Positions 1,795 through 4,312 of a DNA stretch of 5,772 nucleotides are shown here, one piece after another. Origin of the DNA: Escherichia coli (GTDB lineage Bacteria; Pseudomonadota; Gammaproteobacteria; Enterobacterales; Enterobacteriaceae); assembly GCF_050320075.1 (NCBI RefSeq), contig NZ_CP190025.1. One strand, given 5' to 3'. The translations under genes were made by a program, and so were the position numbers. A model generated the notes under the pieces. The model saw nothing but the letters and a program-made list of their open reading frames with translations. It was not told the origin of the DNA and ran no database searches. Each line of letters begins with the position of its first letter. The first letter of the stretch is position 1.

Positions 1795-2943
1795 TCATAA
1801 TATGATGGCTAGGAAGCATATTCCAATACCTATGAGCAGGTTCAACGTCATCATTATTTTTCTAAAAATACTGTTACAATTTGTTTTTAAAAAGAATGCT
1901 GATGGGATAATGAATACTGTTATTGCTATAATTGGGGTTGATAATGCAGCAATAACTTTTATAATTTCGAAATTGGCTTCGCCTGCTATAAATGTGATAA
2001 CAGATACGACAAAAACGATTAATGTTTTGTTTTTAAATCCAAGGGATACTATTGTATCAACAACGCCTGTTAGTGTACCTGTATATGCACCGCTGGTAAT
2101 TAAAATCATGGTTAATATGGAAATGTAAGCAACGAAACTATTTTTTGTTACGTTGGCGCTATATGATAATGCATCGCTGTTAATCTCGCGCATGTTTTTT
2201 ATGTCTGAAGGTGAGAATATATTGCTTAATGAGAACACGATGAATGAGATAAATATTAAAATTAATAGTATCCCAAACATGAAAAAACGTAAATCACCGG
2301 CTGTATCTTTTTTGTTTTGAGCAAAGCGTTGTATACATGGTGAAAAATTAAAACTAAATAAAACAACTGGAAATAGAGTAAGTAAATTACTTGTACTAAT
2401 ATTTTGTATTTCTGTAGAATGTGGATGTGCTGGATGTGAATAGAAATATATAGATAAGAACAGTACAATAAGCAAAGATGGAAATGCTATTCCTGATGCG
2501 AGATGCTCTATCTTTGAATTAAAAAAGATAAAAGAAGAACCAAGGGTTGCAGAAATAATCAGTGACACAAATATTCGCTCTGAACCATTTAGACTTAGGC
2601 TAAAGCAAATAATATTTATCATTGTTGTTATGTTTATAATTGCTATTAACAGCATTGATAATAGGAATGCAATACTGATAGCATTTGCGGCTTTTTTTCC
2701 GATAAATAATATGGCAGAACTAACGTATTCTTTTTTGTCTGTAATTAAAATGAATCTATAAAATGTAAATTGCCCTAATAAAGATACCAAAGATGATAAA
2801 ATCAGTATTGTTATTGTTCCGTGAGTTCCTATGACTTTGGGGCCTACAGTCTGGGGTAGGAAAAAAATCCCTGCCCCAAATGATGTTGCAAAGAATGTTA
2901 CTGGCCATTGGATGCTATTTATCTTCATTTTTGAACCTTTCAT
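1795..2943 (-). CDS. HAAAP-family (TC 2.A.42) amino-acid permease, SdaC/TdcC-like serine/threonine transporter homologue; substrate unknown
   Basis: The long ORF encodes a polytopic hydrophobic protein. Several segments align by eye to E. coli SdaC/TdcC. FGAGIFFLPQ matches IGAGVLFLPI. PVVLFSFNFSPCIQRFAQNKKD matches PVMVFSFNHSPIISSFAVAKREE. ALSYSAN matches ILSYLAN, and LSTPIIAITVFIIPSAFFLK matches LGGPIIAMILFLMPMYAIQK. I chose the start ATG 2943..2941 because it overlaps the upstream stop as ATGA. ATG 2928 (AAAGG 7 nt upstream) is an alternative. The track's 2979 start would overlap the upstream gene by 40 nt. Confidence 0.8.
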   Translation of the reverse strand: MKGSKMKINSIQWPVTFFATSFGAGIFFLPQTVGPKVIGTHGTITILILSSLVSLLGQFTFYRFILITDKKEYVSSAILFIGKKAANAISIAFLLSMLLIAIINITTMINIICFSLSLNGSERIFVSLIISATLGSSFIFFNSKIEHLASGIAFPSLLIVLFLSIYFYSHPAHPHSTEIQNISTSNLLTLFPVVLFSFNFSPCIQRFAQNKKDTAGDLRFFMFGILLILIFISFIVFSLSNIFSPSDIKNMREINSDALSYSANVTKNSFVAYISILTMILITSGAYTGTLTGVVDTIVSLGFKNKTLIVFVVSVITFIAGEANFEIIKVIAALSTPIIAITVFIIPSAFFLKTNCNSIFRKIMMTLNLLIGIGICFLAIIL

Positions 2944-3830
2944 TTGAAGCATGATGTTCCAAAGAAAATAAGTAAACATGGAAGATTAAAATTACTATAA
3001 AAAGATGCTGCTGCTTTATAGCCATTAATTACATTAGCCATTGAGCACAATGGGAATACACCTATGTGTGATGTGTAATTGTCAAATGTCTTGTTCGATG
3101 AAATTTTATATCGAATCGAGCGAAATGTAGCTGCGTTACCTGCTGCACAAGTCGGTTTGTTATTTTTTATCACTTCAAATGATGAACCATCGACATTCAT
3201 AAAAACAGAGTTGTTTTCTTTAAAAAATGGCTTTTCTTTTTCTTTTCTTTTAATGTGTCGTTTAAAACGATCTGCCATGTTTTTTTCACTAACATAGAAA
3301 CAATTTATTTTTATATTATGCTGATTCTGTTTCTCTATAATATAGTTATTTATTACTTCTGGTATTATATAGGGTGATGTGGCTAGTTTTCTATAAATAT
3401 TACCACCATCGATATCTTCGCCATTTGATTTTTCCATGTAGAAATCATTTATTTCCATGAGGAAATCAGGTTTTATATTTAGCTCATGTGTTGATTTTAT
3501 TATGTAGTCAATGCAAAATTTAGCCGATTTTTCAACCTCATTACTAACTGAAAAACGGTCATTCAAATTCACAACAGTATGTCCACCAGATATAATAATC
3601 TTGTCTGATGTGTATTTTTCGGCTAGTTTTATTACAGTATCTATGTTGTCATCTGATATTTCTGTGTTTATTATCTCATCGATTCCTGTGCAATCTGCTT
3701 TGTATACAACAAATCTGTCTTCTTTTTTCCAGTCTTTTGTACAATTACATTTATAGCCCTCGTATATTGCTCTTTTGTTTTTTTTATAAAAATCTGGACT
3801 TTGTAAGGGCATTATTTCTAGGTCTGGCAT
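2940..3830 (-). CDS. Hypothetical 296-aa soluble protein, Lys/Asn/Ile-rich, no family recognised; first gene of the cargo operon
   Basis: ATG 3830 is preceded by AAGGAAG (3844..3838) with a 7-nt spacer, and the stop is TGA 2942..2940. An uninterrupted 296 codons in ~25-30% G+C DNA is unlikely by chance. The only motif-level resemblance I see is DKIIISGGHTVVNL (strand followed by SGG), which is PP-loop-like but lacks the Asp/Ser of SGGxDS. There is also a Cys-containing PTCAAGNAATF segment. Confidence 0.75.
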   Translation of the reverse strand: MPDLEIMPLQSPDFYKKNKRAIYEGYKCNCTKDWKKEDRFVVYKADCTGIDEIINTEISDDNIDTVIKLAEKYTSDKIIISGGHTVVNLNDRFSVSNEVEKSAKFCIDYIIKSTHELNIKPDFLMEINDFYMEKSNGEDIDGGNIYRKLATSPYIIPEVINNYIIEKQNQHNIKINCFYVSEKNMADRFKRHIKRKEKEKPFFKENNSVFMNVDGSSFEVIKNNKPTCAAGNAATFRSIRYKISSNKTFDNYTSHIGVFPLCSMANVINGYKAAASFYSNFNLPCLLIFFGTSCFK

Positions 3831-3970
3831 AGTTATGCTTCCTTTGTCACAAAGAAAATATTTTGCTAATTATGACTTATACATATCAATGATAGAGATC
3901 ATGTTAGTGTTTGATCATTGATGTCTCCTTTATTTATGTGATGCGTCTCTATTTTTTCTCTTATAGTGTC

Positions 3971-3999
3971 TTGGATGTTATTTGTTAAATATGTATTGT
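3971..3999 (+). promoter_or_regulatory. Putative sigma70 promoter for the tRNA gene
   Basis: The elements are TTGGAT (3971..3976), a 17-nt spacer and TATTGT (3994..3999). The predicted start is ~4006, which is at the first tRNA nucleotide (4007). Both hexamers match the consensus at only 4/6 in an A+T-rich context, so this call is weak. Confidence 0.3.
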
Positions 4000-4006
4000 T
4001 TTTTGT

Positions 4007-4095
4007 GGAGAGGTGGGCGAGTGGTCTAAGTCAGGGCTCTCTTGAGGCCATATGCGACAAGCGTATCGTAGGTTCGAATCCTACCCTCTCCGCCA
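4007..4095 (+). tRNA. Type II (long variable arm) tRNA, Ser-like body with anticodon CUU; isotype ambiguous
   Basis: I folded the cloverleaf by hand. The acceptor stem is 4007-4013 GGAGAGG with 4085-4091 CCTCTCC, 7 Watson-Crick pairs. U8 is at 4014. The D stem is GGC (4016-4018) with GTC (4030-4032), and the D loop carries GG at 4023-4024. The anticodon stem is GGGCT (4034-4038) with GGCCA (4046-4050), giving a G-A mismatch on top, 3 GC pairs and 1 GU pair. The anticodon loop is CTCTTGA (4039-4045), placing anticodon CTT at 4041-4043. The variable arm is 17 nt (4051-4067), with stem TATGC/GCGTA and loop GACAA. The T arm is GTAGG-TTCGAAT-CCTAC (4068-4084). The discriminator is G4092 and CCA is encoded at 4093-4095. 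Confidence 0.85.
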
Positions 4096-4156
4096 TTTTG
4101 TTGATCGTTTCCCCCACCATTTGTTGAATTGAGAGGGGTTTTGAAAAAAGATCAAA

Positions 4157-4180
4157 GGATCCTCTTGAGATCCTTTTTTT
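4157..4180 (+). terminator. Weak intrinsic-terminator-like hairpin between the tRNA and RNA II; its 3' arm overlaps the RNA II -35
   Basis: The structure is GGATC (4157-4161), a 7-nt loop, GATCC (4169-4173) and then T7 (4174-4180). The equivalent element is present upstream of RNA II in pMB1-type origins. The stem is only 5 bp, so efficiency is probably low. Confidence 0.4.
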
Positions 4181-4202: not shown

Positions 4203-4312
4203 AAACAAAAAAACCACCGCTACCAACGGTGGTTCGTTTGCCGGAATCAAGAGCTACCAACTCTTTTTCCCGAAGGTAACTGGCTTGGTGGAGCGCAGAT
4301 ACCAAATACTGT
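4203..4312 (-). ncRNA. RNAI: RNA I antisense copy-number regulator
   Basis: The bottom strand reads ACAGTATTTGGTATCTGCGCTCCACCAAGCCAGTTACCTTCGGGAAAAAGAGTTGGTAGCTCTTGATTCCGGCAAACGAACCACCGTTGGTAGCGGTGGTTTTTTTGTTTAC. This gives three hairpins and a terminal U-run, and it is fully complementary to the RNA II 5' end. Confidence 0.85.

Follow-up and report, generated by a model that had tools for sequence, protein, structure and literature searches.

A tRNA-Ser-derived, probably non-decoding RNA encoded beside a stand-alone class I aminoacyl-tRNA-synthetase-like protein on a small plasmid of Escherichia coli

We found that a small plasmid of Escherichia coli carries an 89-nt tRNA-like gene beside a gene for a 296-amino-acid (aa) protein, predicted to be a stand-alone catalytic domain of the class I aminoacyl-tRNA synthetase (aaRS) type, and that the RNA and the enzyme are linked across phyla. 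The DNA that we analyzed (the window, 5772 bp) is an entire, naturally occurring mobilizable plasmid of the ColE1 type, with 100% identity to p0 of E. coli J-8 (NZ_CP047007.1). A first-pass annotation of the window had described a plasmid-borne tRNA with a serine-type body and a lysine (CUU) anticodon, and the identity to p0 and the presence of RNAI confirmed that the gene is on a plasmid. We consider it, on balance, probable that the RNA descends from tRNA-Ser and is a real, selected and non-decoding molecule. We lean, with similarly modest confidence, toward the explanation that it is a dedicated aminoacyl carrier that would be charged by SerRS, kept off the ribosome, and used by an anticodon-blind class I-like enzyme whose product is then transported. 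The RNA family and its synthetase-like partner appear to be undescribed; a literature search found no description of the RNA, the protein, or the plasmid cargo.

The RNA has a well-formed tRNA body. The only tRNA that ARAGORN found in the window is at 4007-4095 (+), and the program called it tRNA-Lys with anticodon ctt. The Rfam tRNA model gave 46.2 bits (gathering score 29, E 1e-7) across 4007-4092, so that both programs called a tRNA, and our own covariance model R1 gave 89.7 bits. ARAGORN, the Rfam alignment, and direct reading upheld the cloverleaf of the first-pass annotation: an acceptor stem of 7 bp (GGAGAGG/CCUCUCC in the Rfam alignment), a D stem of 3 bp with GG in the D loop, a canonical T arm with the loop GGUUCGAAUCC, a variable arm of 17 nt (AUAUGCGACAAGCGUAU) that is a long insertion at the variable region in the Rfam alignment, and G73 followed by an encoded CCA. 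The one non-standard pair that Rfam flags, a G-A at the top of the anticodon stem, the (CT)3 run (CTCTCT at 4037-4042), and the motif CUUGA were also as described there.

The body of the RNA is that of a tRNA-Ser. According to a review of tRNA identity (PMC9976931), serine identity is independent of the anticodon and is set chiefly by the variable arm; bacterial tRNA-Ser has conserved G1-C72 and G2-C71 pairs, and G73 contributes to serine identity in vivo and blocks LeuRS and TyrRS. On that basis, the variable arm is the putative main SerRS identity element of the RNA. The long variable arm, G73, G1-C72, G2-C71, and the 7/5 layout of acceptor and T stems are all present, and they are kept in the 13 versions that we aligned from 15 distinct versions found and folded. 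The 28-nt stretch of T arm and acceptor 3' strand is common to dozens of ordinary tRNA-Ser genes, and in viral contigs (L175, L179) genuine tRNA-Ser(UGA) genes have an identical acceptor stem and almost the same D arm (GUGGGCGAGUGGUU.AUGCC). What the RNA lacks is a serine anticodon (NGA or GCU) in a standard loop; its nominal anticodon is CUU. Because the serine identity features are all present and conserved, we infer that charging by SerRS is the most economical assumption. We dropped G11-C24 of the D stem as a family-specific signature, as this pair is common to genuine tRNA-Ser(UGA) genes.

The RNA did not fit the other classes that we considered. The first-pass annotation had separated it from tRNA-Sec, and this holds: the acceptor stem is 7 bp and the T stem 5 bp instead of the 8/5 layout of tRNA-Sec, and the UCA anticodon was seen in one relative only (L115, with U37). 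The 8/4 or 9/3 layout of allo-tRNAs (a 12-bp acceptor domain) was not found, the layout being 7/5 in 13 of 13 aligned versions. A tRNA-Lys would have A73 and a type I body, in place of G73 and a 17-nt variable arm, and would present UUU or CUU in an open 7-nt loop with U33 and A37. The window RNA does have CUU and U33, but it has G at position 37 and a loop that is predicted to be closed.

Four stems of the RNA are maintained with compensatory changes, and the anticodon arm is not conserved. In the alignment, the 5' and 3' regions were near-invariant, and the acceptor, D, variable, and T stems were 98.1% paired, with changes on both sides at 7 of 20 pairs. These included A5-U68 to G-C and, in the T stem, G-C to U-A, U-A to C-G, and G-C to A-U; the variable-arm stem had A-U or G-C at one pair and U-A or C-G at another. 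None of 500 shuffles reached the observed covariation score, and pairing fell to 40-55% when partners were shifted by 1-3 columns. The anticodon arm was the hypervariable part, with no conserved length, sequence, or loop (Table 1), and ARAGORN assigned family members to Lys, Val, Thr, Sec, Ser, or an undetermined isotype. Because nothing in this arm is conserved, the family does not appear to be selected to decode. The pentamer CUUGA recurs in L180 and, in the form CYUGA, in L004, L170, and L010, where it is part of the 3' strand of the long hairpin. Its register is not conserved among relatives, and it may be left over from an ancestral Ser(UGA) loop.

The RNA is linked to the gene for the 296-aa protein. 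We gathered loci from homologues of the protein in genomes and metagenomes and scanned them with ARAGORN, Rfam, motif searches, and our own calibrated covariance model; the taxonomic spread reported here is that of the sampled loci. Beside enzyme homologues that were 45-67% identical, the RNA was 20-200 nt away, or approximately 3 kb away in a Lentisphaerae metagenome-assembled genome (MAG); six metagenome lineages were among these loci. In a reverse scan of metagenomes with the 3' half of the RNA, window-type RNA was found only in enzyme-encoding loci (L023, L042, L054, L092, L115, and L124). The module was present in 21 of 5426 complete E. coli genomes, on plasmids every time, and the near relatives of the plasmid came from E. 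coli and Klebsiella of humans, poultry, mice, and wastewater.

The partner protein is predicted to have the Rossmann-type catalytic fold of class I aaRS. Its 56 homologues were all labelled hypothetical. There was no meaningful match in Pfam (for the single protein or for all 23 members of an alignment), NCBIfam, PADLOC, or a profile search of PDB sequences, and a weak MptE-like match (E 0.02) was dismissed. An exhaustive profile search of 1.84 billion cluster representatives returned 58 relatives of approximately 280-340 aa, or fragments, none of them fused to another domain, and the enzyme had no tblastn match in phage genomes. In the predicted structure, the nearest fold was that of ArgRS/CysRS, by fold only, and the chain stopped directly after the last Rossmann strand and thus has no anticodon-binding domain. 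Neither a domain that binds the tRNA body nor sequence membership in tRNA-synt_1 was found, and the protein did not have the fold and family membership of a cyclodipeptide synthase (CDPS; TyrRS/TrpRS-like, no ATP motifs). Conserved residues include SGGH(T/S) after the first strand, SEKNMADRFKRH, NKPxC..GNAAT, FPLCS, a C-terminal GKSC, and five cysteines. SGGH follows strand 78-81, with G82 and H84 invariant, and GKSC, which is GTSC in the window protein, comes after the last strand.

A protein of this kind could itself charge the RNA. In that case the two would form an orthogonal pair, the enzyme using ATP to attach an amino acid other than serine, possibly a non-proteinogenic one, with no part for SerRS and with the serine-type body a matter of ancestry. 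We consider this unlikely, although it is the rival that survives best. A bare Rossmann domain would have no use for a long variable arm, yet compensatory changes maintain the arm in all members, which is what a need for SerRS binding would predict, and the acceptor and T-arm sequence is the same as that of many ordinary tRNA-Ser genes. The KMSKS-like lysine is not conserved (the window has GTSC), and the protein has no sequence similarity to any aaRS family.

The arrangement of the two genes differs between groups. In the Enterobacterales (window, Serratia, Edwardsiella, Enterobacter, and Salmonella), the RNA and enzyme genes are transcribed away from each other across a spacer of 176-193 nt. 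Outside the Enterobacterales, the Lentisphaerae MAG excepted, it is 20-120 nt upstream of the enzyme on the same strand. The intergenic region of the window presumably holds the promoters of both genes; a scan of the window for promoter consensus sequences found weak promoter-like sites and nothing stronger, and clear boxes precede the RNA in L003 and L168 (TTGACA/TTAATA and TTGCCT/TATAAT). A terminator-like hairpin followed by a T run is at window 4154-4176 on the (+) strand, 59 nt downstream of the tRNA-like gene. It is presumably part of the conserved ColE1 origin leader (AAAGGATC.TCTTGAGATCCTTTTTTTCTGCGCG) and could terminate the tRNA-like transcript.

The same-strand arrangement raised the question of a regulatory, decoy, or processing role, in which the RNA would carry no amino acid and would serve as an operon leader or signal, or as a mimic by which the aaRS-like enzyme, SerRS, or a tRNA-targeting toxin is titrated or regulated. 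In six lineages the RNA is probably co-transcribed with the enzyme, being 20-120 nt upstream of its start codon; in L003, promoter, RNA, and leader are duplicated as a unit that heads a second operon; and modules resembling toxin-antitoxin systems are frequent on small plasmids. Yet a role in cis cannot be general, because the RNA of the Enterobacterales, including that of the window, is transcribed divergently from the enzyme. The strict conservation of G73 and the acceptor stem, and the mostly encoded CCA, point to use of the 3' end. The transporters, radical SAM enzymes, and racemase nearby suggest metabolism over addiction or defence, and there was no PADLOC match. We regard this second rival as improbable.

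The anticodon arm of the window RNA is predicted to form a closed hairpin. The first-pass annotation had drawn a 7-nt loop, CUCUUGA, with CUU as the anticodon. This is indeed the sole canonical option, but a hairpin with a UCUU tetraloop (4040-4043) was favored by approximately 4-5 kcal/mol. In the predicted hairpin, 4034 pairs with 4049, 4035 with 4048, 4037 with 4046, 4038 with 4045, and 4039 with 4044, giving G-C, G-C, a G.G mismatch (4036/4047), C-G, U-A, and C-G. By nearest-neighbour energies, which leave out modifications and tertiary context, the closed form of the isolated arm was at -8.3 kcal/mol (97.5% of the ensemble) and the 7-nt-loop form at -4.4; for the whole cloverleaf the values were -33.6 and -28.8 kcal/mol, a preference of 3.9-4.8 kcal/mol. 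Control arms treated in the same way, from genuine tRNA-Ser(UGA) genes and from what we take to be the sequence of E. coli tRNA-Lys, folded into 5 bp and a 7-nt loop. In the closed register, C32-G37 and U31-A38 are paired, and the 'mismatched' A43 pairs with the U at 4066 and joins the variable arm. The closed hairpin would therefore explain G37, A38, the weak U-G pair, and the G-A mismatch.

These findings bear on mistranslation, the role that the first-pass annotation had suggested for a Ser/Lys chimera, in which a serine-charged tRNA with a working CUU anticodon puts serine at AAG lysine codons. The serine identity elements are present, the sequence allows a 7-nt loop with U33 and CUU that is the same in two plasmid lineages, and allo-tRNAs show that tRNAs with serine identity and non-serine anticodons can translate in E. 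coli (PMC7609411). But the enzyme-linked relatives have no anticodon loop or have other triplets, the loop of the window RNA is predicted to be shut by C32-G37 and U31-A38, and it is established that G37 in place of A37, with a weak stem, makes a poor decoder of ANN codons. The unchanged loop is uninformative because approximately one change is expected in 7 nt at a synonymous divergence (dS) of 0.19. We consider mistranslation quite improbable, and less likely than a regulatory role.

In E. coli, the module appears to be maintained and not decaying, with proteins and RNA under purifying selection. We compared the window with the lineage L172, from a plasmid of mouse E. coli. At the dS given above, dN/dS was 0.13 for the enzyme gene and 0.14 for the permease gene downstream of it. 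The RNA differed at 3 of 89 nt, compared with approximately 15 changes expected at neutral sites, and all three preserve structure (one G-C to G-U in the anticodon-arm stem and two in the variable-arm loop). The upstream spacer diverged by approximately 8%, judged by eye.

The RNA is therefore very unlikely to be a decaying tRNA pseudogene or a functionless relic of an integration site. Its aberrant anticodon arm, the place of the module on mobile elements, and the lack of a gene for an MBL-fold hydrolase in the window would fit decay; against this stand the compensatory changes in four stems across phyla, the few and structure-preserving changes just described, and a place beside the enzyme that is fixed regardless of replicon. 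An ordinary tRNA-Lys isoacceptor, or the nuclease-resistant one that the first-pass annotation had considered, is hardly credible in spite of the automatic annotation (ARAGORN, RefSeq) and of one relative (L166) with a UUU loop and A37, as the RNA has G73 instead of A73, a type II body, and G37, its nearest genuine tRNAs are tRNA-Ser, and most relatives have no anticodon loop. RefSeq/PGAP labels the identical 89 nt tRNA-Lys, as does RefSeq, among the matches listed, in every E. coli plasmid with the whole query; this label is almost certainly wrong.

The neighboring genes look like small-molecule, amino-acid-type metabolism with export, often plasmid-borne. In the window, the backbone genes (Rop, MobC, and MbeA/B/D) are joined by an AT-rich cargo of three parts: the tRNA-like gene, the 296-aa open reading frame (ORF), and a permease gene. 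The permease gene starts 11 nt downstream of the aaRS-like gene. The permease matched TIGR00814 stp, a Ser/Thr transporter family, with E 1.4e-23, under the family cut-off, so that the relationship is distant; in Serratia, Enterobacter, and Salmonella, its orthologues that adjoin the enzyme carry the annotation threonine/serine transporter. Among relatives, the linked transporter is of three types: HAAAP-type Ser/Thr-like in the Enterobacterales, EamA (DMT) in most others, and MFS in some. An MBL-fold hydrolase is encoded beside the enzyme in 12 of 16 loci and is missing from the window and the E. coli ColE1 plasmids. It gave generic Lactamase_B matches and weak similarity to RNase Z and Apyc1-like proteins.

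Our results concern linkage, the pattern of conservation, the fold, and the predicted closure of the loop; for the charging amino acid, chemistry, and product we offer a proposal. The RNA moves as a single module with the aaRS-like domain and an amino-acid-type transporter, and in most relatives with the MBL-fold hydrolase. It seems to keep the parts that folding, 3' processing, and aminoacylation require (acceptor stem, G73, CCA, D/T elbow, and variable arm), and its anticodon arm seems to have been freed from selection and to be usually a closed hairpin. We propose that host SerRS, which is anticodon-blind and reads the variable arm and acceptor stem, would charge the RNA with serine; that the closed or degenerate anticodon arm would exclude the charged RNA from the ribosome; that the aaRS-like neighbor would bind the acceptor end and use or modify the tRNA-bound aminoacyl group; and that the linked transporter would move an amino-acid-like small-molecule product. 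A dedicated aminoacyl donor outside translation was one of the possibilities in the first-pass annotation, and it is the one that best fits an RNA linked across phyla to a class I aaRS-like enzyme that has no anticodon-binding domain. A more specific version, which we put forward tentatively and with some doubt, is a mobile, translation-independent carrier, in which an anticodon-less tRNA-Ser derivative and a minimal class I synthetase-like enzyme, whose family has no relatives by sequence, build or modify an amino-acid-derived compound on the 3' end of the tRNA that is then exported, possibly as an antibiotic or signal.

Several points weigh against the proposed carrier. First, approximately half of the enzyme lineages had no tRNA-like gene within 5-6 kb in a sensitive, filter-free covariance search (the alphaproteobacterial clade, Cetobacterium-type plasmids, L012, L020, L164, and Pectobacterium), so the enzyme does not strictly need a linked copy of the RNA; in these lineages it may use housekeeping tRNA-Ser or an unlinked copy. 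Second, the energy argument for the closed loop is supportive and not decisive, because one genuine tRNA-Ser(GCU) arm over-paired under minimum-energy folding. U33 and a 7-nt loop can still be drawn in the window RNA, and given this and the over-paired control, some decoding of AAG by the window RNA is possible. Third, two of the four short-arm lineages read lysine anticodons (CUU and UUU). Fourth, the equivalence of SGGH with HIGH and of GKSC/GTSC with KMSKS is guessed, and the enzyme may either adenylate a substrate or only transfer from aminoacyl-tRNA. Finally, the window module, with no MBL-fold hydrolase, may be a reduced form.

We set aside a link to lysine based on the CUU of the window and the UUU of L166. 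In the other relatives we saw UCA, 6-nt loops, tetraloops, or long hairpins, and U is abundant in the loops. The Lys-type triplets probably arose by chance in such loops.

Table 1. Features of the window and of related loci (L numbers).
Feature	Locus	Position	Strand	Basis or remark
tRNA-Ser-derived, probably non-decoding tRNA-like RNA, 89 nt	window	4007..4095	(+)	ARAGORN, Rfam, own covariance model
Anticodon-arm equivalent; nominal CUU 4041-4043	window	4034..4050	(+)	folding
Long variable arm, 6-bp stem and 5-nt loop	window	4050..4066	(+)	folding
Divergent intergenic region, RNA gene/aaRS-like gene	window	3831..4006	(.)	arrangement recurs in relatives
Stand-alone class I aaRS-like catalytic domain (predicted), 296 aa	window	2940..3830	(-)	conserved RNA partner
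Permease, ~377 aa (RefSeq start; longest ORF to 2979)	window	1795..2928	(-)	TIGR00814 match
RNAI	window	4205-4310	(-)	Rfam
Arm of 12 bp and 5-nt loop	L002, L168, L171			L171 with one internal mismatch
Irregular arm hairpins, 28-30 nt	L004, L170, L010, L008
Arm of 8 bp and 5-nt loop	L180
Arm hairpin with GAAA tetraloop	L181
Arm of 5 bp and 6-nt loop	L003
Arm of 5 bp and drawable 7-nt loop, CUU	window, L172
Arm of 5 bp and drawable 7-nt loop, UUU	L166			with A37
Arm of 5 bp and drawable 7-nt loop, UCA	L115
RNA beside enzyme	L002			Serratia chromosome
RNA beside enzyme	L010			Edwardsiella chromosome
RNA beside enzyme	L170			Enterobacter IncF plasmid
RNA beside enzyme	L171			Salmonella 194-kb plasmid
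RNA beside enzyme	L004			proteobacterial MAG
RNA beside enzyme, two copies	L003			Veillonellaceae MAG
RNA ~3 kb from enzyme	L008			Lentisphaerae MAG
RNA beside enzyme	L115, L166, L168, L180, L181			metagenome contigs
MBL-fold metallo-hydrolase, ~240-300 aa	L002	8083-8883
MBL-fold metallo-hydrolase, ~240-300 aa	L168	1485-2252
MBL-fold metallo-hydrolase, ~240-300 aa	L003	7931-8773
MBL-fold metallo-hydrolase, ~240-300 aa	L006	6924-7685		also in other loci

Some relatives had features of their own. L003 has a second, inverted copy of the segment that spans the promoter, the tRNA-like gene, the leader, and ~30 codons at the start of the enzyme gene (5700-6050 and 12350-12750), and this second copy heads a convergent operon for a radical SAM/SPASM enzyme, an MFS transporter, and an Asp/Glu racemase. 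The RNAs of L180 (5887-5982) and L181 (5882-5975) have no encoded CCA and have UGU or UUU after G73. Because these RNAs end 20-25 nt ahead of the enzyme start codon, RNA and mRNA must be split by processing. The nearest enzyme homologue outside E. coli (P0002, 84% identity) is encoded at 5001-5894 of the 43-kb contig L164, which keeps the permease, has no tRNA-like or MBL gene within 5 kb, and has plasmid genes around it (RelB/YafQ, resolvase, and ParA-like). The most distant homologue examined (34% identity) is on a hydrothermal-vent contig (L020, 695-6675), in a cluster with LuxI/LuxR, a ThiH/HydG-like radical SAM enzyme, EamA, and a short-chain dehydrogenase (SDR) and with no tRNA-like gene. 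In the alphaproteobacterial loci L005, L006, L007, L009, L011, and L013, the enzyme has 321 aa with a C-terminal extension of ~25 aa and an MBL partner, and a tRNA-like gene is never adjacent. Acceptor- and T-loop-like motifs in L005-L007 were not tRNA-like, and the calibrated model confirmed the absence.

Matches to the Rfam family 'Plastid-psbl-rps4 3'UTR' were seen at window 4049-4092 on the (-) strand and at equivalent places in L002, L003, L004, L008, and L010 (29-45 bits, gathering score 68). They are below threshold, are on the strand opposite the tRNA, and overlap its 3' half, and we regard them as artefacts of tRNA-Ser-like sequence.

Soil and rhizosphere metagenomes contained a second, larger family of Ser-type tRNA-like genes. 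Its acceptor stem and T arm are the same as in the first family, and its D arm is different (GCGAGAGYGGCYGAAUCG). The anticodon arms are closed hairpins, for example GCGGCC-GCAA-GGCCGC, with a long AT hairpin in L112. The loci include L022, L028-L032, L035, L038, L043, L051, L055, L056, L060, L061, L064, L071, L072, L081, L086, L112, L126, and others; none had the 296-aa enzyme nearby, and clustering of neighbors gave no conserved partner gene. This soil family of anticodon-less Ser-like genes hints that carrier tRNAs are a wider, overlooked class.

The module resembles several known systems in part. Allo-tRNAs were reportedly described by Mukai et al. in 2017. Like the window RNA, they combine SerRS identity elements (a long variable arm and G73) with anticodons that do not match serine, and some of their irregular relatives are on mobile elements and are not used in translation (PMC7609411). 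They are defined by the 8/4 or 9/3 layout of acceptor and T stems and mostly have a proper anticodon loop (PMC7609411), whereas the family of the window RNA has the 7/5 layout, in most cases lacks an anticodon loop, and is tied to one particular aaRS-like enzyme. tRNA-Sec, with SelA or PSTK/SepSecS, is also a dedicated type II tRNA with G73 that is charged by SerRS, kept off normal elongation, and handed to a specialised enzyme, as we propose here. However, it has the 8/5 layout and a conserved UCA and it decodes, and its partners are pyridoxal phosphate enzymes or kinases instead of a class I aaRS-like domain; there are no selenium genes in the present module. In Staphylococcus, non-proteinogenic tRNA-Gly isoacceptors used by FemXAB are extra tRNAs that serve as aminoacyl donors outside translation and are disfavoured by the translation machinery. 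They differ in having a normal anticodon arm, the normal GlyRS, Fem transferases with a GNAT-like fold, and chromosomal housekeeping genes.

Synthetase-derived enzymes with other functions are known as well. SbzA (IleRS-like), AcmF (AlaRS-like), and the CDPSs are aaRS-like enzymes of natural-product synthesis that use aminoacyl-tRNA (PMC12945691). In these systems, as in our proposal, a synthetase-derived domain moves a tRNA-bound aminoacyl group onto a small molecule, and the gene clusters contain exporters. However, SbzA and AcmF can be recognised from their sequences as full-length paralogues and use housekeeping tRNAs, and the CDPSs resemble TyrRS/TrpRS, whereas the 296-aa protein is a bare Rossmann domain with its own tRNA-like RNA. 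The truncated class I paralogues YadB/GluQRS, MshC, and BshC have clear sequence similarity to GluRS or CysRS, unlike the 296-aa protein, which by sequence is a member of none of the enzyme families named here. Their substrates are known (tRNA-Asp queuosine for GluQRS, GlcN-inositol for MshC, and GlcNAc-malate for BshC), and none is linked to a dedicated tRNA-like gene.

Annotation pipelines that take the isotype from the anticodon alone will mislabel RNAs of this kind. The pairing of a bare class I catalytic domain with an RNA defined by its acceptor arm resembles models of early synthetases, and its presence on a 5.8-kb E. coli plasmid makes the module easily testable. If our explanation is correct, a tRNA body that can be charged with serine and is ignored by the ribosome, together with a synthetase-like domain of ~300 aa that is independent of the anticodon, would be a ready-made orthogonal scaffold, and a new enzyme family and a new type of tRNA derivative would join the short list of tRNA-dependent reactions outside translation.

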